The position numbers and the translations under genes were made by a program. From NCBI GenBank assembly GCA_000004695.1, contig CM000155.2:2688001-2752000 (forward strand): 64,000 nt of DNA. The letters run 5' to 3'. Shown one piece after another: positions 38,579 through 64,000 of this stretch (the first letter of the stretch is position 1; every line of letters starts with the position of its first letter). Source of the DNA: Dictyostelium discoideum (taxonomy: Eukaryota). Below the pieces are notes generated by a model, which saw only the letters and a program-made list of their open reading frames with translations, was not told the origin of the DNA and ran no database searches.

Positions 38579-40284
38579 TTATAGAAAGTACTGAGTGAAT
38601 TATTGTATTTTTTGAGATGTTTAGGAAGTTCTATTGCGGGTGTTGATGATGATTTGTGACACCCCTTGTCCTGTTTTATCAATTGGTGCGTGGTGTGTTA
38701 TTTTGTTTTTATATTGTTGATTTATTGAGTAAATTTTATTTGTTTTTATATTTGTTTCAGTTAGAAGTGCTGCGTCCAGCTTGTTGTTGTCTAAAACGGT
38801 GTTTATTATGCTGGCAGATTGGATGGTGTTGGATCCTTGGACGTTCCAAACACCTATTCTTATTGTGTTTTTCTTTATAGTTTTATTTGGGGTAGATTTT
38901 TATCTACCTTTTGAAGTTTCTGGTTTATTTTGTCTTCTAACTGATCTTTACTTTGTTCATTGTGTTGTTGGTCTTGTGTGTTTGTGGGGTTTTTTGATTT
39001 ATTGATTTGTTTTAGAATTTCCTTGTTGAAGTTGTCTATATCTTCATCCATTTTTGTTTTTATGCTTTTTTGTCCATATTCACCCAATTTTGGTTTGACT
39101 GGTGTTTTGTTGGTCTTGTTTGTTTTGTCTTGTTGTTTCTTTTTTGGTGTGTTTAACAATTTACTTGGTGAATCGATAATTTTCGATGGTGTACCATAGG
39201 TTGGGCTGAAACTCATGATATGTTTTATTGGAGAGGAGAAGAACCATTGATTTGAAGGGATTGAAAGTGGGAATTCTATTTTTCTTATTGCATCAGTGTT
39301 TGGGCTGGTGAAGTCGAAGATATCATTTGCCTCTCTAAGTTTTTCTTCCGTTGTTAGTCCCTTTGTTTCGCCGTGTTGTTTTATTGGTGTATTGTATGGA
39401 GATGGTGGTTCGATAGGTTTTTCTGATTTTGTTTTAATTTCTTGATTGTTTATCGATTGTGTATTGATCTCATTCTCTATTCTTGTTAGTTCATCTACGT
39501 TTTCTAGTGATGCTTCTATTACCTTTTGAGCTGTATCATCTAGGGCCATAAATGTTTTATCATTAGATGAGGATGTGATTGGTGGGATAATGATTGTTCT
39601 TTTTCCTTGTTTTGGTATTTGTTCTGATGTAGATTGTGGTTGTTGTTCATCTGATTGTTTTTTATTTTTGTTTTCTTCTTGATTTTCTGGTAATGAGGTT
39701 TGATCTCTCCATCCTTTGTTGGAGTGTCCAATTAATGTTAGATTGTCTAGTTCAATGATAGTGTCAAATTCTTCTACGACTCTTTTCACTGTTTTGATAA
39801 TTAGAGTTTCGCCTTTAATTTCTGATTTAATTAGTTTACATCCTTCATTTTNTATTACCCNNTCTATTTCTGTGAGTGATTTATACCNATCAAAATCTGN
39901 ANACANATTTTTTGGTCTTANAGTGGNTANAAANTGTCCNTTTAATTNTGCNTCNAACATATTTNCNAAATAGATTNCTGNACTAANACNGTCTGTGAGA
40001 ATTTTGAANGTANTATTACTTTTGATTAAAACATCTTTTTTGTCCAAACTTTTTTCTAAATCTTTTTTTATTTTATCGTCTGGTTCGTGATTGATGTTTA
40101 TGACGTATTTGAATTGTTTTTTTTTTAATTGAGTTTTATCCACAATTTCGCTTATTTTTTGTAGGCATTTGTGTTGCTTAATATTTGTGGTGTTGTTTGT
40201 GATTTTCATTTTATTTTCTTTCTATCTTTTTTATTTTTCTTTAAAAAGTTAAAAATCTGGAAATTTTCTAATTAACTTGGTTCC

Positions 40285-40441: not shown

Positions 40442-40523
40442 GTAAGCTTGCCCGAGCTGGTCTAAGGGGTTGCATTAAGGCTGCAATATCATTGATACAA
40501 GGGTTCGAATCCCTTAGCTTACA
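40442..40523 (+). tRNA. tRNA-Leu, anticodon AAG.
   Basis: The 7-bp acceptor stem is GTAAGCT/AGCTTAC with discriminator A. The D-arm reads GCCCGAGCTGGTCTAAGGGG. The anticodon stem TTGCA/TGCAA closes the loop TTAAGGC, giving AAG at positions 34-36. A long variable arm (TATCATTGATAC) and the T-arm AAGGGTTCGAATCCCTT follow. Length is 82 nt. Confidence 0.85.
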
Positions 40524-41041: not shown

Positions 41042-41965
41042 TTTATTAGTTGCTTATTTTTTAATAATGCCAAATCACAAGATCAATCACCAATCACATT
41101 AATAGTAAATCCAAATATTAATAATACTTATATTATTGGTGAAAAATGTGGTATTAAAGAGAGCCTTGTTAATTTATATCAATTTAATTGTTCAATTTCC
41201 CCACTGGAAGTTGGAGGAGAAATCATTTTAAATGGTAACATTAATCCATTATCTCCTTACCAAACAAAGATTCAAATATTACAAACAAACAATTCAACAT
41301 CAGTATTAATTAGTATTGTTATTGGTGACTTTACATTATCAAATTCAATTATTTCAAATATTACAAATGAATATAATGGATATCCTTCAACCAACTATTT
41401 AATTTATACAGATAGAATAAATTTTACATTGAATAATGTTAATATTTTCGATATTGGATCTAGTATTGAAACAGTAATACAATCTGAAAATAGTATTCTT
41501 AGTATAACAAATTGTTTATTCAACATTCTTACCACTGTACTTGGTGCAATATCTGGTGGTAGTTGTAATGTAATAATCAAGAATTCAGTTTTCACTTCTT
41601 TATCATCATCATCTGGACCAAGTGTATTGAATTATCTCACAAGTACAGAAAATGTTGAAATAACACTTATAATGAAAAATTGTCAAGTTTATAATTGTTA
41701 TTCTCAATCAAATGGTGGAGTTTTATTTATGTCAAATTATTTTAATTCAAAAAATGTTCCAAATTTGATTATTGAAAATTCTGTCTTAAAGAATAATAAT
41801 GGTTCAAAGGGTGGAGTACTCTATAGTTCAAAGTATCCATTAATTATTAACAATTGTACTTTTGATTCAAATGTTGCAGGACTTGGTAGTATTTTATATG
41901 TTTCAGGAGGATCAATAACAGTTACAAATTCTACAATTATTAATGTAATTAATCCAACAAAAAAT
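41042..41965 (+). CDS. N-terminal fragment (about 300 aa) of a secreted parallel beta-helix-repeat protein. It is truncated or interrupted where the tRNA/retroelement cluster begins.
   Basis: The frame is open from 41042 with no in-frame ATG and a signal-like start (...FISCLFFNNAKSQDQSPITLIVNP). Beta-helix-type repeats follow (SILSITNCLF..GGSCNVIIKNSVFTS; NGGVLFMSNYF; GGVLYSSKYPLIINNCTFDSNVAGLGSILYVSGGSITVTNSTIINV). From about 41965 the ORF at 41429..42130 reads through the exB and tRNA-Glu sequence, which is non-coding. Confidence 0.4.
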
Positions 41966-42019
41966 TTATATCTTTGTTTTCTTTTTTTTTTTTATTTATA
42001 TCTATCGTGTGGTTGGGTG

Positions 42020-42031
42020 AGTATCGAACCC
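42020..42031 (-). promoter_or_regulatory. External B box downstream of tRNA-Glu (minus strand).
   Basis: Minus strand, following the poly-T pol III terminator: TTTTTACTTATACCCGAAAATAAAATCAAGGGTTCGATACTCACCC. GGGTTCGATAC is a B-box-like element about 30 nt 3' of the tRNA. This is a partial tRNA-like 3' half and not a full gene. Confidence 0.4.
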
Positions 42032-42061
42032 TTGATTTTATTTTCGGGTATAAGTAAAAAC

Positions 42062-42133
42062 CTCCCCATTCGGGAATCGAACCCGAGGTACCAGTGTGAA
42101 AGACTAGAGTGTTACCGACTACACCAATGAGGA
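42062..42133 (-). tRNA. tRNA-Glu, anticodon UUC.
   Basis: Minus strand: TCCTCAT TG GTGTAGTCGGTAACAC T CTAGT CTTTCAC ACTGG TACCT CGGGTTCGATTCCCG AATGGGGA G. The acceptor TCCTCAT/ATGGGGA has one G-U pair. The D-stem is GTGT/ACAC. The anticodon loop CTTTCAC gives TTC. Length is 72 nt. Confidence 0.8.
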
Positions 42134-42139
42134 ATTGGA

Positions 42140-42923
42140 TGAAAATTTTTTTCAATAGCGATGATATTAGGTGTAAAAATAACCCCATTACGAAGTTCTC
42201 CCCAACCTCAAAACAATATACAATGATCTCATGAAAAACCAATATCTAAATTACGATTCTTTCAACCCAACTCCGGGTCAGACCCAAATCATGAAAGAAA
42301 TTAAAAAAACAACTCTCCCTTTTCTAGAAATCAGGAAAATAGTCAACTTGAAAGGAAGAGACCTCCTCTGGAGATTAGCTCTTAAAGCTCTTCCAAAGAT
42401 CCACAACGCCCCTTGCATCTGGTGTAACGAACAGGAAACCTCAGAACACATCTTCTTCAAATGCAAATCACACATTAAAGAAACTCAAGAGTGCATCAAC
42501 TACATTCAAGAAAAATCTGGAGGATCCAGAATCAATTGGGGAATAGAAATCTTCAACAGACTAGACATTCCATTAACAGCCAACGCCATAGCCATTATTT
42601 GCGAAAACATCTGGAGAAGAAGAAACAAGAAAATCCGGATAACACTAGGAATAACACTCAAAAACTTAAGAAAACAACTACTAGTACACGAACTAAAGAA
42701 AACTCAAACAGCAGCCTGGGAAAGAACAAAAAACAACATATACAAACTAATCAGACAAGAAAAAAAAGCAACCAACAACGAACAAATAAAAAAATTCAAA
42801 AACATCATCTCCCTACAACTCGAAAGATTTAGCAAACACTGGAACTCACCACTTCACGCAATAGCACTACCATCAAACCTCAACAAATATATTACGTCAC
42901 TAAACACACTCTACACCCCCCAA

Positions 42924-42972
<49 letters not shown>
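42140..42972 (+). mobile_element. Fragment of a TRE5-type non-LTR retrotransposon (ORF2 C-terminus plus 3' end) with a 45-nt poly(A) tail. Its proximal end is about 50 bp from the 5' end of tRNA-Glu, head-to-head.
   Basis: The frame is open from 42183. The protein has the zinc-knuckle LWRLALKALPKIHNAPCIWCNEQETSEHIFFKCKSH (C..C...H....C) typical of the C-terminus of LINE-like reverse-transcriptase ORF2. Poly(A) spans 42928-42972. It shares the 30-nt block at 42837-42866 with the nested fragments at 38086-38113. Confidence 0.6.
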
Positions 42973-42975
<3 letters not shown>

Positions 42976-43039
42976 CTTACAACCTTAAAGGCACCTGTAA
43001 TATCTAATAATAAAATTAATAAAAGGAGTTATATCTCAA

Positions 43040-43700: not shown

Positions 43701-43967
43701 AATCATAATTTTCTATTGCAATAACTCTTTTTTTTTTTTTTATATATTTTCAAAATTTTTTTTTTTTATTAATTATTATTTAAAAATAAATATAATATAA
43801 ATTTTAAATATTATTTTAATATAAATATAATATATTTTATTAAATATTTACACATATTAATTTTTTTTTTTTTTATTTTTTTTTTTTATTTTTAGAAGTT
43901 TTAAAGATTTAATTAAATGTAAAGTATGTACTATAATGTGTTCACAATCAATATTTTATAATTGAGG

Positions 43968-45215
43968 NNNNNNNNNNNNNNNNNNNNNNNNNNNNNNNNN
44001 NNNNNNNNNNNNNNNNNNNNNNNNNNNNNNNNNNNNNNNNNNNNNNNNNNNNNNNNNNNNNNNNNNNACGGAGGAGGCTCGGGGGAAGAGAGAGGAGGCA
44101 GAGCAGGGGGGCGCATGGTGGATGGTCGAGAAGAGATGGCACCGCCGAGGGCGGGCAAGGGAGGGAGTCGAAGACCAGGCGGCACACGACCGCGGGGGCG
44201 GGAGAGGCAAAGANAGAAGCGGGCGTGGCGAGAGGGAGGGGGGCGCGACGGGAAGGTGCAGGACGAGACGAAGACGAGGGAATCGGTCTCGAGGGGCAGG
44301 GGGAGAGGCGCAGCGTAGACGCGCGCACGGTGTAAGGTAAGAGAAGGGAGAGCGGGGGGAGAACGAGAGCCGAGAAGACTGCTGATACGAGGAAACGACG
44401 GGAGATCGCGGGAGAACCACAGAGGAGGAGGCGAAGAGGGGTGGTGGAGGGGACGCGCCGACAGATGACAAANACAAGGCGCGCGCGGGGTGGGCGCCTC
44501 AGAGAGGGGGGGGGCGGAAACGAGGTCGGGGGCGAATAGAGGGAGAAATGAGGGAGCGAAGCCGAAAAGACACCCGAGGAGACGCGGACACAACAGGGGG
44601 GGGGGATCTCCTCTGGGGGGGGACGGGAAAGAAGAGAGGGGGATGTCTTCGCGAAAGCAAACGTATGTGGTGTGTTTAGAAAAATGTATCGGGAGGGGGG
44701 GGGGAAGAGACACAGGGGTGGTGTGTGTCGAGAGACAAAGGCTCACCCAGTGTTAGAAAGAAAAAATGTTTTGTTGCAAGAGAAAACATTGCCCCCCCCA
44801 GGAAGGGTGGGGCGCCAGGGGAAAAAAAAAGATGTTTTCCCCCAAATGAGGTGGGGGGGAAAGGGAGGGGGGGGGGAAAGGCTCCCCCCCCTCCGGGACA
44901 TTCCGCCAAGCGGAAAATGGTCTAAAGAGGGAACTCCCCCCAGGGGAAAAGGGAAAAAAGATTTGGGAGGGCGAGGGGGTTTATAAAGGATTTGGGGGAG
45001 GAGACATACGGCAAGACACTCCAGGAAATGAACGAATATCCCCCGGCCCCCCCTTGAAAGTTGGAGGGAACACAAATTAACATGGTGGAGCAAAAATGCG
45101 GGTATAAATAAAATTTCCCCGGGGGGGGAATATAAACCAGGGAGAATGCCCACTTGTTCCCCAAAGGGAGGGTGGGGATGAAAATAAGTGCCCCGTTGGT
45201 TAAAAAAAAATTCCG

Positions 45216-45344: not shown

Positions 45345-48998
<3,654 letters not shown>

Positions 48999-53327: not shown

Positions 53328-54563
53328 ATGGCAACGCCTTATAGAGAGAAAATTGAAAAAATGAGTTCAGAGGTTATTGATAGTAACCCATACTCAAGAT
53401 TAATGGCATTAAAGAAAATGGGTATTGTTAATAATTATGAAGTATGATTGAACAACAAAAATAGAAAGTATATGTATATATATTTTTAAAATTATTATTA
53501 ATTTTATTTTTATTTTAAAAAAAAAAAAAAGAATATTAGAAATTTATCAGTTATAATTGTTGGATTAGGCGGTATTGGTAGTGTTGCAGCAGAAATGTTA
53601 ACAAGATGTGGTATTGGTAAATTATTATTATTTGACTATGATACTGTTGAAATTGCAAATATGAATAGATTATTTTTTAGACCTGAACAATCTGGTAAGA
53701 GTAAAACTATGGCAGCACAAGAAACTTTATCATCAATTAATCCAGATGTTCAATTTGAGTCACATAATTATAATATCACCACCATTGATAATTTCGAGCA
53801 TTTCAAAGGACGTATTGAAAAGGGTGGTTTGGTAGAAGGTGAGCCTGTGGATTTAGTATTGGGATGTGTTGATAATTTCGAAGCACGTACAGCAATAAAT
53901 CAAGCATGTTTAGAATTGGGTAAAAGTTGGATGGAGAGTGGTGTATCAGAGAATGCAATCTCTGGTCATATCCAATTGATCATACCTGGTGAAAGTGCTT
54001 GTTTCCAATGTGTACCACCATTGATTGTTGCAAGTGGTATCGATGAACGTACATTAAAACGTGAGGGTGTTTGTGCAGCTTCGCTACCAACAACTATGGG
54101 TATAGTTGCAGGTATGTTGGTTCAAAATACTCTCAAATATTTATTAAAATTTGGTGAAGTCTCTTCATTATTAGGTTATAATGCATTATTAGATTACTTT
54201 CCAAAAGATAACATGAAACCTAATCCAGAATGTTCAAATTCATTTTGTATTATTCATCAACAAAAATATAAAGAATTTTTAAAAAATAATCCAAAAGAAA
54301 ATTTAATTCAAAATAATAATAATAATAATATTAATAATAATGAAAAGAAATCTACATATGAAAATGAATGGGGTATTGAATTAATTGAAACTTCTGAAGA
54401 TTTTAATAATAATAATAATAATAATAACAAACCTTCAAATAATTCATTCGAATTTTCTTATGATAAAAAACCAACTGTAGAATTAAATGAACAATCAACT
54501 GTGAAAGTAAACTCATCTTCAAATCTTGAAGATTTAATGAATCAATTAAAAAATATGAAATAA
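53328..54563 (+). CDS. uba5: Ubiquitin-like modifier-activating enzyme 5 (UBA5, the E1 for UFM1), join(53328..53441,53532..54563), about 381 aa.
   Basis: Exon 1 [38 protein letters not shown] ends at GTATGA. After a 90-nt intron, exon 2 begins [49 protein letters not shown]... and continues ...[58 protein letters not shown]. This is near-colinear with metazoan UBA5. Confidence 0.85.
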
Positions 54564-55222: not shown

Positions 55223-58200
55223 ATGTTTTCCCAATTTAAACAAATCATAGGTATGATATTTAATTGATTATTTATTTATTTTTATTTCATTTTTATTTTT
55301 TTATATTTTTATTTTTGAATAATAATAATTAAATAAATTATATGTTAACATTTTTTTTTATTTTTTTTTTTTATATTATTTTTATTTTTTTTTTATTATT
55401 ATTATTAAATTAGATTCAAAAATTGATAATAAAGTTAATACAATCAGTAAAAAGATTCAAAATAAATTAGTAATATTAAATGGAGCAGGAGGATCACCAA
55501 ATAAAGGTAATAAGGATAGAAATTTTAAATTATCATTTTCAAGTATGATATTTATACCACCACCATTACCAACAATACAAAGTGATCCAAATTTATTTAA
55601 AGGTGCACCAGAGACAGAGATGAGTCAATATAGTGAGAATGGATTTTCATTCTATTATGAAGAGTTTGAGGAGGTGGGAATGACAGCACCAAATTTAATA
55701 GTACAACAAAATATACCAAACATTCACCCAGAACCATTGGAAGGTATGCATCCGTATGGATTTAATTTTGAAGAGTATAATCAAAGAAGGGCGAATATGA
55801 ATTTAAATCATGCAAATGTAGATTGTAAACCACATTTCCTACGTATTCAAAATGAGAATCCAATAAAGAATTATGCAATGACACCAACTAATCAAAGGAT
55901 TTTAAGCAAGGCAGAGTTGATGCAATGTTTGCAACCCACTAATATCACCTACATTTGCATCACCGATCAATCGTTTACCAATAAGGAGAGAAGAGCGTTC
56001 TTGAAGAAACTTGCTCAGTTTAGTTCAGTTGAGACTTTGATTGTTAAAGGGTGTGGTATTAAAAGTTTTGCCAATGGTAGTAGATTCCCAGTACTACGTT
56101 TTGTTGATTTATCACAGAATAGTATTAAAAATTCATCAGGTATTAAGAAATTAATAAAATATTCACCATGGTTAGAATTTTTAAATTTAAGTGGTAATGG
56201 TATATCGGCATGCACGGAATTGGAGTGGAAACAACGTTGCAATCGTCTCCTATCGACATTGACTCAATTGGAGAATATAAATTCAAAAGCGATACCAATA
56301 GATGATCGTATTGGTGCAATTTCATTATATGGTCCAACCAATAGAAAACAACAATTGGAGAAAATCAGATGGGAACTTCATTTAGATTCATTGGCTGATG
56401 TTAGAGCATTGAGACCCATTCATCCAGGTTGGCAACCACAAGGTATACTTCATATTCAATTGAATAATTGCCAATTACGTCATTTCTACATTGGTGCAAT
56501 GGTAAATTTAAATAGTTTAGATTTATCAAGAAATCTTTTAACTGATATCTCTTTTAGTGGTATTGAAAAATGTACATATCTACAATATTGTAATCTATCA
56601 AATAATCAATTGGCTCGTGTAGATACTACTTGTCAAATGTTTGAATTCACTCCATCGATTCGTTGTGTTGTACTATCAGGTAATCCAGCTACCTTTTCGA
56701 GAGATCTCTATAAAAAGGAGTTAATTTATCGTACTAGAAATGGGTGTGGTACAAATAGATCATTGGGTATTCAACAAATTGATACGGAAATGATATCGAT
56801 AGATAATAAAGTTTCGACAATTCATGAATATGAATTAAAGACAAGTGGTAATCAAGAGGTTGCAAATAAAGTCTCATCAGAACTACGTTGGAAATTATTA
56901 ATAATTGAAAGGTTTGGTCATAAACAGTTACAAAGTATTCCAAACTTTTTCGATAGCATTAGACATATTGCATTCCCAAAATCAAATATTCAAATGGTTG
57001 ATGTATTTTGTTTTAAGAATATTGAAATCATTGATTTCAGTGGTAATGATCTATTCCAATTCAATGGTTTAAGAGCATTATATTCTTTACGTGTACTTTT
57101 ATTACAAGATAATCCAAGATTGGATACGAAATCAGTCACTGATCAATTGGATCAATTGGAAAGTTTAGAATCTATAAATTTATCGGTAAATGGTGATCAG
57201 ACACATCAAAGGTATCCAAAGAATACTCAAAACTCTCAATACAGAGCATTGGTACTTGGAGTGGTGATACCAAAGAATCGATCATTCATTCTATTGGATA
57301 ATAATGTTATTTCAAATTTAGAACGTGTTGAAGCCTATAGAAACGCAGGTTACTCTAATGATTTAGTCGAACGTTATAGATTCTTTTTAGCATTGACAAT
57401 TAATTGCACTCTACCATTTGGTCGTCAAGTTTATCCTGATCAAGTTGAAATTGGTAAACAATATGATCCAACACAAGTTACAATTCTTAGAAGGCTAAGA
57501 GAATGGCAATTGACTTCAGAGTTTATCAATTTCTCTTACTTTACAAATGTTCAAGAAATTGATTTAACCAATAATCGTCTAACTGATATTTTAAATATTG
57601 GTTTACAACAATTGAATAATCTTTCAAAACTTTGTTTAATTAATAATCAAATTAATAATCCATTACCATTGATAGCTCAATTATTGGATTCAATAAAGTC
57701 ATTGGAGATCATTGCAATTCGTGGTAATCCTTGTATGAGAAGCCCAAATGATAGATTATCATTGATTGGTCATATGTCAACAATGAAGTCAATTACAGAA
57801 TCAACATTAAAAGTAATAGATACTGAAATTACAATCTATGATAAAGTTGAAGGTTGGAAACTAGTTGGTGGTCCTTTAAAAGATGCTGAAATTTTAAAAT
57901 TAAATTATATCGTTAAATTTAAATCAATAGATTTATTCGATCATCATTCTTTATTTAATTTAGAACTTTGTGATTGTGCTTTAGAATATTTAGATATTAC
58001 ACCATTTATAAATTTAAGAACACTATTGTTAGCAAATAATAAATTTAAATTATTATCAAATATAGTTGGTTTGGGTAGTGGTAGTTGTCAACAATTGTTT
58101 GCATTGGATTTAAGAAATAATCAATTGGATTCAATGTCTGATTTTAAAACATTGCTATTATCATCATCATTACCACAATTATCAGTTATTGGTTTATCAG

Positions 58201-58940
58201 GTAACGGTTTCACTAAATCATCAACTAGTCAAACTTTTAATTATCGTTCAAAATTCTTGGCTTTAATTACACCATTATCTCAATCTCATCTCTATCCATT
58301 GTCAATGTTGGATTCAAATGAAATCACTCCTGATGAAATTAATGATTGTCAACCATTGGTTGGTGTTGATAAAAAGGAATCGTTATTTAATATTTGTCTA
58401 TTAAGAAGATCAACTTCTCCTGATTTCTTTAATTTAACTGAATTGGATTTATCAGGTTGTAATGTAACATTTTGTAATTTTGGTTTACTTCAAAATTTAA
58501 TTATACTCTCATTATCAGATAATAATATCTCTGATTCAAATTTAAAAGATAGTAGTATCTCTTCTTTAAATAATCTTAAAGCTTTAGATTTAAGAAATAA
58601 TAGATTAAAAGATTTATCAATTTTATGTAAAATTATTGATTTATTAAATATTGAAGTAAGTAAAAATATTAATAATTATTTATAATAAATTATAAATTAT
58701 AAATAATAAATAATAATAATAATATTAACTATTTTTTTTTTATTTATTTATTATTATTATAATTATTATTAGACATTATTTGTTGAAGAAAATTCATGTT
58801 TTGAAAAAGATACTCCAAAAGATAGAATTAAATTCTTTAAAAAATTAACAAATTCCAGAGTTTTATCAACTATGAAATATTTAAATGGTTCTGAAGTAAC
58901 TTCAAATGATACTATTAAATTTAATAATAAAAAGAAATAA
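55223..58940 (+). CDS. Large leucine-rich-repeat (LRR) protein of about 1145 aa, join(55223..55250,55414..58655,58773..58940). The first micro-exon is tentative.
   Basis: Many LRR units (L..L.L..N.I..I; e.g. LRVLLLQDNPRLD, LDLRNNQLDSMSD, LDLSGCNVTFCNFGLLQNLIILSLSDNNISD). The 3' junction is clear: ...LLNIE|GTAAGT with acceptor TTATTAG|ACA TTA TTT GTT GAA..., giving TLFVEENSCFEKD...KFNNKKK*. The 5' exon ATG TTT TCC CAA TTT AAA CAA ATC ATA G|GTATGA joins TTAAATTAG|AT TCA AAA in phase. Confidence 0.65.
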
Positions 58941-61012: not shown

Positions 61013-61396
61013 TCTTAAAAATTGTAATATACACAATATAGAAAAAAAACAAATAAAAAACAATATTTATATTAGAAATGATTTATTTTATTTTATTTTA
61101 TTTTATTTTATTTTATTTTATTTTATTTTATTTTATTTTTTTTTTTTTTGGTATAATGGATAATTAAATATTTGGATTTAAGTAAAATGAAAAGATATTT
61201 CAGTTATTCAAAGGAATTAATAAAGGAGAGGTTAACTCTCAATTTATTAGGTTAATAAATTAAAATTAAAATTAAAATGTTTAGATAAATTATAAAAAAA
61301 AGTAAAAAAAAAGTAAAATTAAAATAGGAATTAATTTTTTTTTTTAAAGAAAAAACTTTAAAAAAAACTCTAATTTATTTAAATTTAGTAGAAAAG

Positions 61397-61774
61397 TTAA
61401 CAACATCTACGACGACGACCAATATCGATATCAATATTAATGATATTGGCGTTTGAACCGCCACAACTACCATTAAAACCACCAATACCACCCCATCCAC
61501 TTAAACCACTCCATCCAGCTAAACCACCACTACCACCACTACCACCACTACCACCACAACCACCATCAAAACATGAAATTGAATTATCATTACTAGCAAA
61601 TCCATTAAGATTAGAGGCACCAATTGAACTTCCCATTGAACCAGTTGAATTTGAAATTGATGAAATTGATTCTATTAAATATTAAGTTTTAATAGTAAGT
61701 AAATGATAGGTTACTATTTTTAAAAAAAGAGAAAAATGAAAAAAATAATAATAATATTTACTAAAAATTGCCAT
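61397..61774 (-). CDS. HssA/B-like (hsl/sigN-type) small Gly/Ser-rich protein of about 95 aa, complement(join(61397..61671,61762..61774)).
   Basis: A 13-nt first exon ATG GCA ATT TTT A|GTAAAT, then a 90-nt intron and acceptor ATTTAATAG. The product reads [24 protein letters not shown]...[14 protein letters not shown]...[18 protein letters not shown]. The MxI-SISSISN start is the hallmark of this Dictyostelium small-protein family. Confidence 0.65.
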
Positions 61775-62082
61775 TTATTTGTGTATTTTTTTTTTTTATA
61801 ACTTTTTTTTTTTAAAATGATTTTATTTTTTTTTTTTTCAATATAAATAGTCTATTAAATTGTTTGATTAATTTATTTTAAAATTAAAATTTATTATAAA
61901 ACAACAAAATATGTGTTTTAAATATTTTTTTTTCTTTTTAAACAAGTCTATTTCAACTTTTTTTTATATTTTATTTTATTTTTTTAAAATTAAAAAACTA
62001 TAAATTCTTTTTTTTTTTTTTTTTTTTTAAAAATAAATAAATAAATAAAATACAAATAAAAAAACAAATAAATATCAAACAA

Positions 62083-62421
62083 ATGACAATTTTTAGTAAA
62101 TATTTTTTTATTCCTAATTAATAATAGTAAATACTTGAAAATATTAAATTACTAATAATTTTTATAATAATAAATAATTTAGATTCAATTTCATCAATTT
62201 CAAATCCAACCAGAACAGCATTAAGTTCAATCAACACCTATAATTATAATGGATCATCTGTTAATGATAATTCAACAGCATATTTTGATAATGATTTTGG
62301 AGGATGGGGTGGTTTAGGTGATTTTGGTAATGGTAATGGTTGTGGAGGTGGTAGTTCAAATGTAAATGTTATTAACCTTGACATTGATTTTGGTCGTCGT
62401 CGTCATCGTAGATGTTGTTAA
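62083..62421 (+). CDS. HssA/B-like small Gly-rich protein of about 83 aa, join(62083..62095,62183..62421). It is divergent from the previous gene.
   Basis: ATG ACA ATT TTT A|GTAAAT, then acceptor ATAATTTAG. The product reads [83 protein letters not shown]. Confidence 0.65.
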
Positions 62422-62469
62422 TTCGCTTTAATTATTAAATAAATATTTTATACTTGCAATTTAGAAGTT

Positions 62470-62640
62470 AAATAGTTTTTTTTTTTTTTTTTTTTTTTAT
62501 AATGGCTATTAATACATATGCAAGGTTTAATAAATATTGAATGTAAAATAAATAACGCAATTGTTATTTTCCTCTCCTTGAGATACTTATTTTCATTTTA
62601 TTTATTGTTTTTTAATTCTTAATAGCATGCTAGTTGTTGA
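62470..62640 (-). mobile_element. Retroelement 3'-terminal (C-module-like) fragment with an oligo(A) tail on the minus strand, located inside the hsl gene cluster.
   Basis: Plus strand 62556-62612, ataacgcaattgttattttcctctccttgagatacttattttcattttatt, is a variant of the motif ending the TRE5-type fragments at 38233-38290. The plus-strand T22 run at 62470-62491 equals poly(A) on the element strand. Confidence 0.35.
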
Positions 62641-62910
62641 TTTTTTTTTTTTTTTTTTTTTTTGTTCTTTCTTTTTTTTCTTTGATAGGGGAAAGTTGAA
62701 AGTTTATAATAAAAAAAGAATTAAATGATTGGAAAAAAGTAGAGTTTAAAAATTAAAAATAAAATAAAAATGTCTTGGTGAATTATTAAAATTAAAATAA
62801 AAAAAGTAAAATAAAAAAATAATAATAGTTATAATAACAGGGATTAAATTTTTAAAAAGAAGTTTTAAATGAAATATTTTATTTATTTAAATTTAAATTT
62901 TGTGAAATAA

Positions 62911-63252
62911 TTAACAACATCTACGATGACGACGGCCAATATCGATATCAATGTTTATGATATTTGCATTTGAACCACCACAACCAACATTAAAACCACC
63001 GATACCACCCCATCCACCTAAACCACCACCACCACCACCACCATCAAAACATGAAATTGAATTATCATTACTAGAAAATCCATCTTTACTAGAGAAACCA
63101 ATTGAACTTCCCATTGAACCAGTGGAATTTGAAATTGATTCTATATTATATTTAATTAGAATGGTTAGTAAATAGTTAGTTATTTTTTTAAAAATAAAAA
63201 AAAAAAAAAAAAAAGAAAATATAAAGAAATAGTATTTACTAAAAATTGCCAT
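62911..63252 (-). CDS. HssA/B-like small Gly-rich protein of about 80 aa, complement(join(62911..63140,63240..63252)).
   Basis: Same micro-exon structure: ATG GCA ATT TTT A|GTAAAT, a 99-nt intron (in-frame, so the ORF track reads through it) and acceptor ATATAATATAG. The product reads [80 protein letters not shown]. Confidence 0.65.
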
Positions 63253-63542
63253 TTTTTATATTTATTTGTTTATATGATTTTATTTTTATTTTTTTAAAAA
63301 TTTTTTTTCAATTAAAATAGTTTATTAAATTGATAGATTAATTTATTTAAAATAAAATAAAAAATTTAAATTTCCATTATTAAACAAAATTTGTGTATTA
63401 ATTATTTTAAGCAATTTTATAATCCTTTCAACTTTTTTTTTTTTTTTTTTCAAAAATTATAAATACTAATTTTTTTTTCATATTAAAAAAAAACAAATAA
63501 AAACAAATATACAAAAAAAAAATAAAATAAATATATCAAGAA

Positions 63543-63860
63543 ATGTCAATTTATTGTAAATATTCTATTTTTTAATATGAATATACTTAAAAATTTTAAT
63601 AACAATTTTAAAATAATAATTTATTAGATTCAATTTCCTCAATTTCAAATCCAACTAGAATGGCATTAAGTTCAATCAACACATATAGTTATAATGGATC
63701 ATATGTTAATGATAATTCAACAGCATATTTTGATAATGATTTTGGAGGATGGGGTGGTTTAGGTAATTTCGGTAATGGTAATGGTTGTGGTGGTAGTTCA
63801 AATGTAAATGTTATTAACCTTGACATTTATATTGGTCGTCGTCATCGTAGATGTTGTTAA
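63543..63860 (+). CDS. HssA/B-like small Gly-rich protein of about 81 aa, join(63543..63555,63628..63860).
   Basis: ATG TCA ATT TAT T|GTAAAT, then acceptor TTTATTAG. The product reads [81 protein letters not shown]. Confidence 0.65.
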
Positions 63861-64000
63861 TTCACTTTACTCTAATTAATAAATAAAATAATAATTTTTT
63901 TTTTATTATTATTTTAAAAGATATTATTCAAAAATTAATTTTATTATTTTTTTTTATATTTTTAGTATAAAATTTTTTTTTTTTTTTTTTTTTTTCCTTT

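Follow-up and report, generated by a model that had tools for sequence, protein, structure and literature searches.

Within the 64-kb window (the whole stretch of DNA analysed here), positions 61397-63860 carry four two-exon genes in the strand order (-)(+)(-)(+), designated M1, P1, M2 and P2, whose spliced translations give products of 95, 83, 80 and 81 aa, respectively. A sequence-only reading of the window had proposed four paralogues of 80-95 aa in this same arrangement, and the gene models agree with it. The individual features are as follows.

61762-61774, minus strand: M1 exon 1 coding sequence, 13-nt coding start ATGGCAATTTTTA
61672-61761, minus strand: M1 intron, 90 nt, GTAAAT...AATAG, 13% GC
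61397-61671, minus strand: M1 exon 2, stop codon included, from spliced translation
61374-61379, minus strand: AATAAA poly(A) signal of M1, 18 nt past the stop
62083-62095, plus strand: P1 exon 1 coding sequence, 13-nt coding start ATGACAATTTTTA
62096-62182, plus strand: P1 intron, 87 nt, 9% GC
62183-62421, plus strand: P1 exon 2, product UPF0512 protein I
62438 (start), plus strand: AATAAA signal of P1
63240-63252, minus strand: M2 exon 1 coding sequence, 13-nt coding start ATGGCAATTTTTA
63141-63239, minus strand: M2 intron, 99 nt, retention of which would leave the frame open
62911-63140, minus strand: M2 exon 2, product UPF0512 protein J
62887 (start), minus strand: AATAAA signal of M2
63543-63555, plus strand: P2 exon 1 coding sequence, 13-nt coding start ATGTCAATTTATT
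63556-63627, plus strand: P2 intron, 72 nt, 8% GC
63628-63860, plus strand: P2 exon 2, product UPF0512 protein K
63878 (start), plus strand: AATAAA signal of P2

The four predicted starts are the only places in the 64-kb window with the 20-nt start pattern ATGNCAATTTWTWGTAAATA, for which 0.02 occurrences would be expected. All four introns open with GTAAAT, close with (T/A)AG and have a GC content of 8-13%, compared with 30-38% for the coding sequences. They measure 72-99 nt, which corrects the range of 90-105 nt given by the sequence-only reading. That reading had also described 13-nt micro-exons; the 13-nt coding start followed by GTAAAT is present in every gene, but 13 nt is the coding part only and, because a 5' UTR adds to it, exon 1 is not a true micro-exon. 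Since the initiator is the sole methionine of P1, its ORF requires splicing. The second exons (275, 239, 230 and 233 nt for M1, P1, M2 and P2) differ in length by multiples of three throughout, and an AATAAA lies 17-24 nt downstream of the stop in all four genes. Each transcript would be completed by a single splice right after the 13-nt coding start, with the putative AATAAA signal about 20 nt beyond the stop. The sequence-only reading had thus recovered the right gene models from the raw letters, down to a coding exon of 13 nt. All four intron lengths are divisible by three, which was judged meaningless: three of the four introns carry in-frame stops, and the introns of other family genes, those of D. 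firmibasis included, do not share this property.

Searches with tblastn recovered the four copies with E values of 1e-18 to 1e-61 and found no fifth family copy within the 64-kb window. DDB_G0293328 proved to be unrelated to the family; it encodes a nucleic-acid-binding protein. An exact match to an upstream 1046-aa LRR ORF was absent from the protein collection, presumably owing to introns in that gene.

Three of the four products are 100% identical to proteins from chromosome 6 of D. discoideum AX4: P1 to UPF0512 protein I (XP_629194.1, Q54BZ7), M2 to UPF0512 protein J (XP_629195.1) and P2 to UPF0512 protein K (XP_629196.1). The window itself very probably comes from this chromosome, either of AX4 or of a strain almost indistinguishable from it. 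The three accessions are consecutive and all carry the NCBI name "hssA/2C/7E family protein", so the similarity to HssA/B, hssA/2C/7E or sigN proteins anticipated in the sequence-only reading was borne out; its family label holds for hssA/2C/7E, but UniProt files these proteins under UPF0512 and not under the "hssA/B" family. For M1, the closest database protein was UPF0512 protein L (78% identity, E 3.7e-38), and the exact protein was not found in a collection of 15 billion sequences that contains its three neighbours and includes RefSeq, UniProt and nr. When compared to the UPF0512 proteins (UniProt U512A-X), M1 nevertheless lacks none of the invariant columns, the SNxNIINxDIDIGRRxRRCC end among them, and P1, M2 and P2 correspond to I, J and K without difference.

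The hssA/2C/7E family of Dictyostelium comprises roughly 100 genes for tiny Gly-rich developmental proteins, and its founders hssA, 2C and 7E have the same structure as the genes described here, namely a first exon of 13 bp followed by a second of about 200 bp. Among 96 sigN-related genes, 89 have an exon-1 ORF of 13 nt (Vicente et al. 2008). All four genes at the locus show the family gene structure (13-nt first-exon ORF and a single short intron), and all four products are below the 120 aa that delimit the family (Vicente et al. 2008), as are the sigN-related proteins. Allowing for a one-base offset in the published table, M1 fits the entry sigN147/DDB0191871 (chromosome 6, 13//274, intron 89, 95 aa) in size, intron length and chromosome, and M2 fits sigN171/DDB0191873 in the same list; a chromosome-6 entry matching the plus-strand subtype (I and K, 83 and 81 aa) is absent from the 96 genes. 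Identity to SigN1 is listed as 19% for sigN147 and 22% for sigN171, both on chromosome 6, so M1 and M2 fall outside sigN Groups 1 and 2, for which the criteria are an identity to SigN1 of about 60% or more and a location in the two chromosome-2 clusters.

The Pfam profile PF05710 ("Coiled") scored 23.4 bits for P1, 18.5 for M1 and 16.6 for P2, with no match for M2, so that P1 alone lies above the gathering score of 21.4 bits and M1 and P2 fall below it. At E<=0.01 the profile was matched by 20 of 28 UPF0512-type relatives (best 9.9e-8). The alignment takes in the MxxFxSISSISN region at the N-terminus together with the Gly-rich core, spanning between 1-58 and 1-71 of the 90 profile positions; because it ends before the C-terminal NIINxDIDIGRRxRRCC block, this block looks specific to UPF0512. 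The invariant RRxRRCC end also distinguishes UPF0512 from hssA and sigN.

The products would be Gly-, Ser- and Asn-rich chains of 80-95 aa predicted to lack a stable fold. Glycine makes up 15-26% and serine 13-20% of the residues, and AlphaFold, run on a 39-sequence family alignment, returned a mean pLDDT of 40.9 with zero secondary structure. Conservation is seen at both ends. The N-terminus is kept as M-x-I-F-x-SISSISN in M1, P1 and P2, as the sequence-only reading had it, but M2 begins with KSISN and has one SIS unit fewer. At the C-terminus, the signature C-G-G-S-N-x-N-(I/V)-I-N-x-D-I-D-I-G-R-R-x-R-R-C-C, with its terminal Cys-Cys, is recognizable in all four products, and the invariant columns C74, N78, N80, I82, N83, D85, C94 and C95 are present in each. 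The conserved basic terminus reported earlier stands overall, with two exceptions in detail: the M1 tail is GRRRRCC, without His, and in P2 a Y replaces the second D of the signature (DIYIG instead of DIDIG). The motifs at both protein ends are conserved out to D. purpureum. By tblastn identity, P1 and P2 (86-90%) and M1 and M2 (71-73%) form two subtypes, with 45-55% for cross-type pairs, in line with the proposed division by strand. The partners of each pair thus belong to different subtypes, which sets the locus apart from the sigN-related family.

An alignment that takes in the DNA around and between the genes delimits two units.

61251-62500: duplication unit 1, the M1-P1 pair with short 3' flanks (blastn; direct-repeat families D6, D8, D9, D11, D14 and D16)
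62744-63959: duplication unit 2, the M2-P2 pair (blastn against unit 1)

The units are collinear and 74.5% identical over 1315 alignment columns. The duplicated block spans 1.25 kb, and the spacer between the units (62501-62743, about 240 bp) is non-homologous; with start-to-start spacings of 1442-1517 nt, the period is 1.44-1.52 kb, confirming the tandem duplication of a divergent pair with a unit of about 1.5 kb. Between units, exon 2 is 93% identical for the P type and 74% for the M type (with gaps), while introns are 71% and the intergenic region 66% identical; the synonymous divergence of P1 and P2 is 0.09.

Could the likeness of the ORFs be a low-complexity artefact, arising from Gly-rich repeats in AT-rich DNA and not from paralogy? 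The Gly and Ser contents given above lend themselves to such a reading, as do weak Gly-rich tblastn matches at 2900-3185 and 47556-47861, which proved to be Gly-rich stretches in large unrelated ORFs and not family members. Yet the homology is not limited to the repeats: it continues in collinear order into the non-repetitive motifs at the N- and C-termini, into the introns and into the intergenic DNA. The 20-nt start motif is confined to four sites, and three products match curated proteins exactly. The tblastn results, the exact protein matches, the collinear alignment and the start-motif count together refute the artefact, to which we assign a negligible probability. Overall, the four genes are almost certainly members of the UPF0512 subfamily of the hssA/2C/7E family, arranged as tandem head-to-head pairs.

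The array probably grew when unequal crossing-over copied an entire divergent pair, consisting of one "MAIFK" type and one "MTIFN...PTR" type, and selection and/or gene conversion would since have kept the coding exons closer than the non-coding DNA. Positions 61397-63860 may represent the first two units of a longer tandem array. Accession order (I, J, K, L and W as XP_629194-198; M as XP_629201) suggests that UPF0512 L, W and M follow beyond the window end as further parts of the array. The genes, their exon structure and the duplication mechanism for divergent pairs are already annotated and published, and the pair layout is ordinary for the family, whose origin has been ascribed to duplication of a divergent two-gene tandem (Vicente et al. 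2008).

The pair layout is conserved in D. firmibasis. A locus on CM069770.1 (RB653_010413/010414 and neighbours) holds eight members that likewise begin with ATGGCAATTTT(T/C)A|GTAA; their introns measure 65-100 nt, the splice of the eighth member being unclear. Divergent pairs there lie 290-514 bp apart, and one same-strand tandem is also present. The "MAIFK" type accounts for seven of these members and MTLFK for one; no member of the "MTIFN...PTR" type was seen at this locus. The RRxRRCC end is found in most members, with two altered ends (RHRRWF and RRHRTYC).

One or more of the copies, M1 above all, might be a degenerating duplicate or a pseudogene with no function. M1 alone of the four is absent from the collection's versions of RefSeq, UniProt and nr, no other copy is as divergent (71-73% to M2, 78% to UPF0512 L), its GGS repeat is expanded and its basic tail has lost the His; among about 100 redundant genes, loss of a member would also be tolerable. 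On the other hand, the ATG, GTAAAT donor, AG acceptor, open frame and AATAAA of M1 are all intact, all invariant family residues are retained, and a gene prediction of 95 aa was listed in 2008. Values of dN/dS were 0.41-0.80, below 1 in every comparison (14-60 substitutions per pair), which weakly favours selection at the protein level; values of 0.4-0.8 also count in favour of decay, as the constraint that they indicate is mild. We consider decay of one or more copies unlikely.

A slightly less probable alternative is that the genes act as RNAs, the transcript and not the 80-95-aa product being functional. It draws on the summary of earlier hssA work by Kin et al. 2018 and on the closeness of P1 and P2, whose second exons are 93% identical at a synonymous divergence of 0.09 while introns stand at 71%, a pattern expected from constraint on the nucleotide sequence and likewise from gene conversion. 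Against it, the ORFs are intact in all four genes and in the eight D. firmibasis genes despite many indels in the Gly repeats, exon-2 lengths always differ by multiples of three, the protein motifs at either terminus persist out to D. purpureum, and no comparison gives a dN/dS of 1 or more. An Rfam scan of the whole window returned only two tRNAs and thus no family match to the genes.

The two regions between the divergent start codons match exactly, ATG to ATG, the intergenic coordinates proposed earlier.

61775-62082: M1-P1 intergenic region, 308 bp, 8.1% GC
63253-63542: M2-P2 intergenic region, 290 bp, 8.6% GC

The identity of 66% between 61775-62082 and its copy compares with 53 +/- 5.5% for shuffles, and the region contains a conserved block, ATAGT..TTAAATTG..GATTAATTTA. 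A TATAAAT with a T-run lies at 61999, 84 nt upstream of the P1 ATG, and is found again upstream of P2 (TATAAAT at 63458, 85 nt); for M1, a TATA-like CAATATAAATAG is located at about 61839-61850, approximately 75 nt upstream of the ATG. Each gene would thus be transcribed outward from an intergenic region of about 300 bp and 8% GC, and each appears to own a TATA-like element about 75-85 nt before its ATG. The intergenic regions may act as bidirectional promoters, as the sequence-only reading had it, and the members of each pair may be co-regulated.

The family to which these genes belong, with about 100 members, reaches high expression late in Dictyostelium development. Published work describes prestalk expression of the sigN-related family from 10-12 h, up-regulation of the family at the tip-to-slug and slug-to-Mexican-hat transitions, and cup-specific expression of some members. 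Deletion of 13 sigN genes produced no phenotype and the published antibody data are of uncertain specificity, which argues for caution over any functional role, even at the family level. By analogy with these relatives, the four genes may possibly be induced during multicellular development (post-aggregation, from tip/slug onward) in the prestalk/cup lineage and encode redundant small secreted, matrix or adhesion-related proteins. Our own inspection of the sequences showed no obvious hydrophobic signal peptide at the N-terminus, so a secreted or matrix role fits poorly.

Polybasic stretches combined with lipidated cysteines are a known type of targeting signal. Resemblance to this motif underlies a more speculative and, in our estimate, improbable reading of the RRxRRCC end, which occurs together with an N-terminus that shows no evident signal peptide. 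It might serve as a lipid anchor, its last two Cys, beside the basic patch, undergoing dual S-acylation or geranylgeranylation. If so, a disordered Gly-rich chain would be tethered to the cytosolic membrane face, and UPF0512 proteins would be membrane-coating rather than components of a secreted matrix.

Four small two-exon genes, arranged (-)(+)(-)(+) and labeled M or P for minus or plus strand, were modeled directly from the sequence:

61762-61774 and 61397-61671, minus strand: M1, exon 1 CDS and exon 2, intron 90 nt, 95 aa
62083-62095 and 62183-62421, plus strand: P1, exon 1 CDS and exon 2, intron 87 nt, 83 aa
63240-63252 and 62911-63140, minus strand: M2, exon 1 CDS and exon 2, intron 99 nt, 80 aa
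63543-63555 and 63628-63860, plus strand: P2, exon 1 CDS and exon 2, intron 72 nt, 81 aa

In all four, the 13-nt coding start (ATGGCAATTTTTA in M1 and M2, ATGACAATTTTTA in P1, ATGTCAATTTATT in P2) is immediately followed by GTAAAT, and the intron ends in AG. The 20-nt start and donor pattern occurs four times (0.02 expected in 64 kb), exclusively at the starts of these genes, and tblastn recovered the same four copies (E 1e-18 to 1e-61) with no fifth copy within the window. Introns contain 8-13% GC compared to 30-38% for the CDS, and AATAAA lies 17-24 nt past every stop codon. Met1 is the sole methionine of P1, and its ORF therefore exists only when spliced. Models, pattern and tblastn copies thus agree with the gene arrangement proposed by the sequence-only reading, except that introns measure 72-99 nt and not 90-105 nt as claimed. 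Their lengths are all multiples of three, which is probably chance because three of the four (M1, P1 and P2) carry in-frame stops. The M2 intron (63141-63239) has none, and its retention would yield a protein of 113 aa containing a hydrophobic, Phe-rich insert.

The proposed tandem duplication of a divergent pair was also borne out. The M1-P1 unit (61251-62500) and the M2-P2 unit (62744-63959) align collinearly with 74.5% identity over 1315 columns, have a start-to-start spacing of 1442-1517 nt by block, and are separated by a non-homologous spacer of ~240 bp (62501-62743). Between units, identity is 93% for P exon 2, 74% with gaps for M exon 2 (82-86% in ungapped blocks), 71% for introns of both types and 66% for the intergenic region, against 53 ± 5.5% in shuffled sequence; the P 3' flank is no more alike than the shuffled level. 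The plus-strand and minus-strand subtypes described earlier are real, as product identities by tblastn reach 86-90% for P1/P2 and 71-73% for M1/M2 versus 45-55% for cross-type pairs. Just outside the duplicated block, ~250 bp past the M1 3' end, lies an (ATTTT)n microsatellite of ~11 units followed by a T-run (~61081-61149).

The feature is real, it is already annotated and published, and its original interpretation is supported with minor corrections. P1, M2 and P2 exactly match UPF0512 proteins I (XP_629194.1), J (XP_629195.1) and K (XP_629196.1) of D. discoideum AX4, all named "hssA/2C/7E family protein" by NCBI, which upholds the suggested hssA/B-like assignment. Of the four products, that of M1 alone has no exact match in the collection searched, which includes NCBI nr, RefSeq and UniRef; its nearest database relative is UPF0512 protein L (78% identity). 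The chromosome 6 entries of the 96-gene sigN-related list include DDB0191871 (sigN147; 13//274, intron 89, 95 aa), DDB0191873 (sigN171; 13//229, intron 98, 80 aa) and DDB0191875 (sigN156; 90 aa) (Vicente et al. 2008, Additional file 1, PMC2257962). With the one-base offset of that table taken into account, the three entries fit M1, M2 (protein J) and protein L, respectively, and M1 was therefore already a recognized gene prediction in 2008. The gene is intact despite its database absence, which may reflect an annotation gap or later deletion of the gene model. That list has no chromosome 6 entry matching the plus-strand subtype, here UPF0512 I (83 aa) and K (81 aa); their minus-strand partners do have entries. 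RefSeq accessions continue after K with L (XP_629197, minus-strand type), W (XP_629198, plus-strand type) and, three further on, M (XP_629201). Judging from this order, the array very probably runs on beyond coordinate 64000 with at least one further pair.

All four genes belong to the hssA/2C/7E family in the broad sense and, within it, to the UPF0512 branch, which a profile search recovered only from D. discoideum, D. cf. discoideum, D. citrinum, D. firmibasis and D. purpureum. P1 scores 23.4 bits against Pfam PF05710 (gathering score 21.4), M1 and P2 fall under the gathering score and M2 has no match; 20 of 28 UPF0512-type proteins match at E<=0.01. The match spans the N-terminus and Gly-rich core, leaving the C-terminal block outside. 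Invariant columns in an alignment of 28 relatives (residues M1, N34, C74, N78, N80, I82, N83, D85, C94 and C95) define the signature ...C-GGSNxN(I/V)INxDIDIGRRxRRCC. The SISSISN start and basic C-terminus described as shared hold in general; M2 is short of one SIS unit, M1 ends in RRRRCC and P2 has DIY instead of DID. Membership of sigN Group 1 or 2 was ruled out because identity to SigN1 is just 19-22%.

A D. firmibasis locus (L001, on CM069770.1) holds eight members (7798-19638) with the same start, ATGGCAATTTT(T/C)A|GTAA, in two sub-clusters with a TIG-domain gene and a nucleoside hydrolase gene between them. Divergent pairs occur there too (ATG-to-ATG 290, 302 and 514 bp), as does a same-strand tandem (10001-10306 and 10870-11230); two members have altered C-termini (...GRHRRWF and ...GRRHRTYC), and the plus-strand subtype was not seen at this locus. 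The member at 19346-19638 carries GTAGGT as its donor, and its splicing is unclear; an unrelated His-rich 79-aa gene lies within the cluster (18023-18262). Alignment of two intergenic regions from the window with two from D. firmibasis revealed a conserved block, ATAGT..TTAAAT..TTGATT. TATAAAT lies 84-85 nt upstream of plus-strand ATGs and, in the window, precedes a T-run; a mirrored TATA-like element lies ~65-75 nt upstream of minus-strand ATGs. These motifs suggest a separate core promoter for every gene, one at either end of the ~300-bp region, with ~150 bp between them in common; bidirectional regulation from this region is plausible.

All ORFs are intact, exon-2 lengths differ only by multiples of three, and dN/dS is 0.57 for P1/P2, 0.41 for M1/M2 and 0.66-0.80 across types, with few substitutions behind each value. 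Synonymous divergence (0.09 and 0.18) is below intron and intergenic divergence, suggesting that exons undergo gene conversion or are constrained at the nucleotide level. AlphaFold, given a 39-sequence alignment, predicted no secondary structure (mean pLDDT 40.9), consistent with a low-complexity protein that is disordered. Most likely, then, two small divergent genes of two exons each were duplicated in tandem as a pair, their products being putative Gly/Ser/Asn-rich unstructured proteins of 80-95 aa that, by analogy with the family, may be induced in multicellular development and act redundantly. The polybasic Cys-Cys end could be a lipid anchor. Function at the RNA level, the main rival to a protein product, is less likely given intact ORFs that conserve their motifs across species. 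Kin et al. (2018, PMC6198379) describe nearly 100 hssA/7E/2C genes with a 13-bp first exon and one clade expressed in cup cells only, and mention earlier work in which hssA suppressed a culmination defect even with its frame shifted. Katoh-Kurasawa et al. (2021, PMC8327917) found that expression of family members rises at the tip-to-slug and slug-to-Mexican-hat transitions. Vicente et al. (2008) count 96 family genes, 89 of which carry a 13-nt ORF in exon 1, trace them to the duplication of a two-gene divergent tandem, and report prestalk expression starting at 10-12 h. Deletion of 13 sigN genes gave no phenotype, and an anti-Group-2 antibody of uncertain specificity breaks up mounds (Vicente et al. 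2008, PMC2257962).

The window as a whole averages ~22% GC, with higher values in short coding islands. Downstream of 100 consecutive N (43968-44067) lies ~1.1 kb of purine-rich DNA (to 45210) that contains extended runs of G and of C as well as isolated n's and terminates in a long A-run; 44001-45000 has 58% GC, a GC skew of +0.45 and an AT skew of +0.49, against 22% GC for the genome. The interval 43968-45210 looks like an assembly gap and flanking low-quality read tail, not biology, and mechanical ORFs at 43931-45153 (minus strand) are probably meaningless. Two tRNA genes lie just upstream of the gap:

40442-40523, plus strand: tRNA-Leu(AAG)
42061-42134, minus strand: tRNA-Glu(UUC)

Dictyostelium tRNA genes draw TRE/DGLT retroelements; ORFs beside these two (38875-40209, 41429-42130 and 42231-43007) have no Pfam match at 1e-5. 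A gene annotated as "TRE5-C ORF2 fragment" (DDB_G0293344_RTE) has an identifier number near that of UPF0512 M (DDB_G0293326). The following neighboring ORFs are ordinary chromosomal genes:

45345-48998: BRCT-domain protein
53595-54563: ThiF-family E1-like enzyme
55545-58685: leucine-rich-repeat protein
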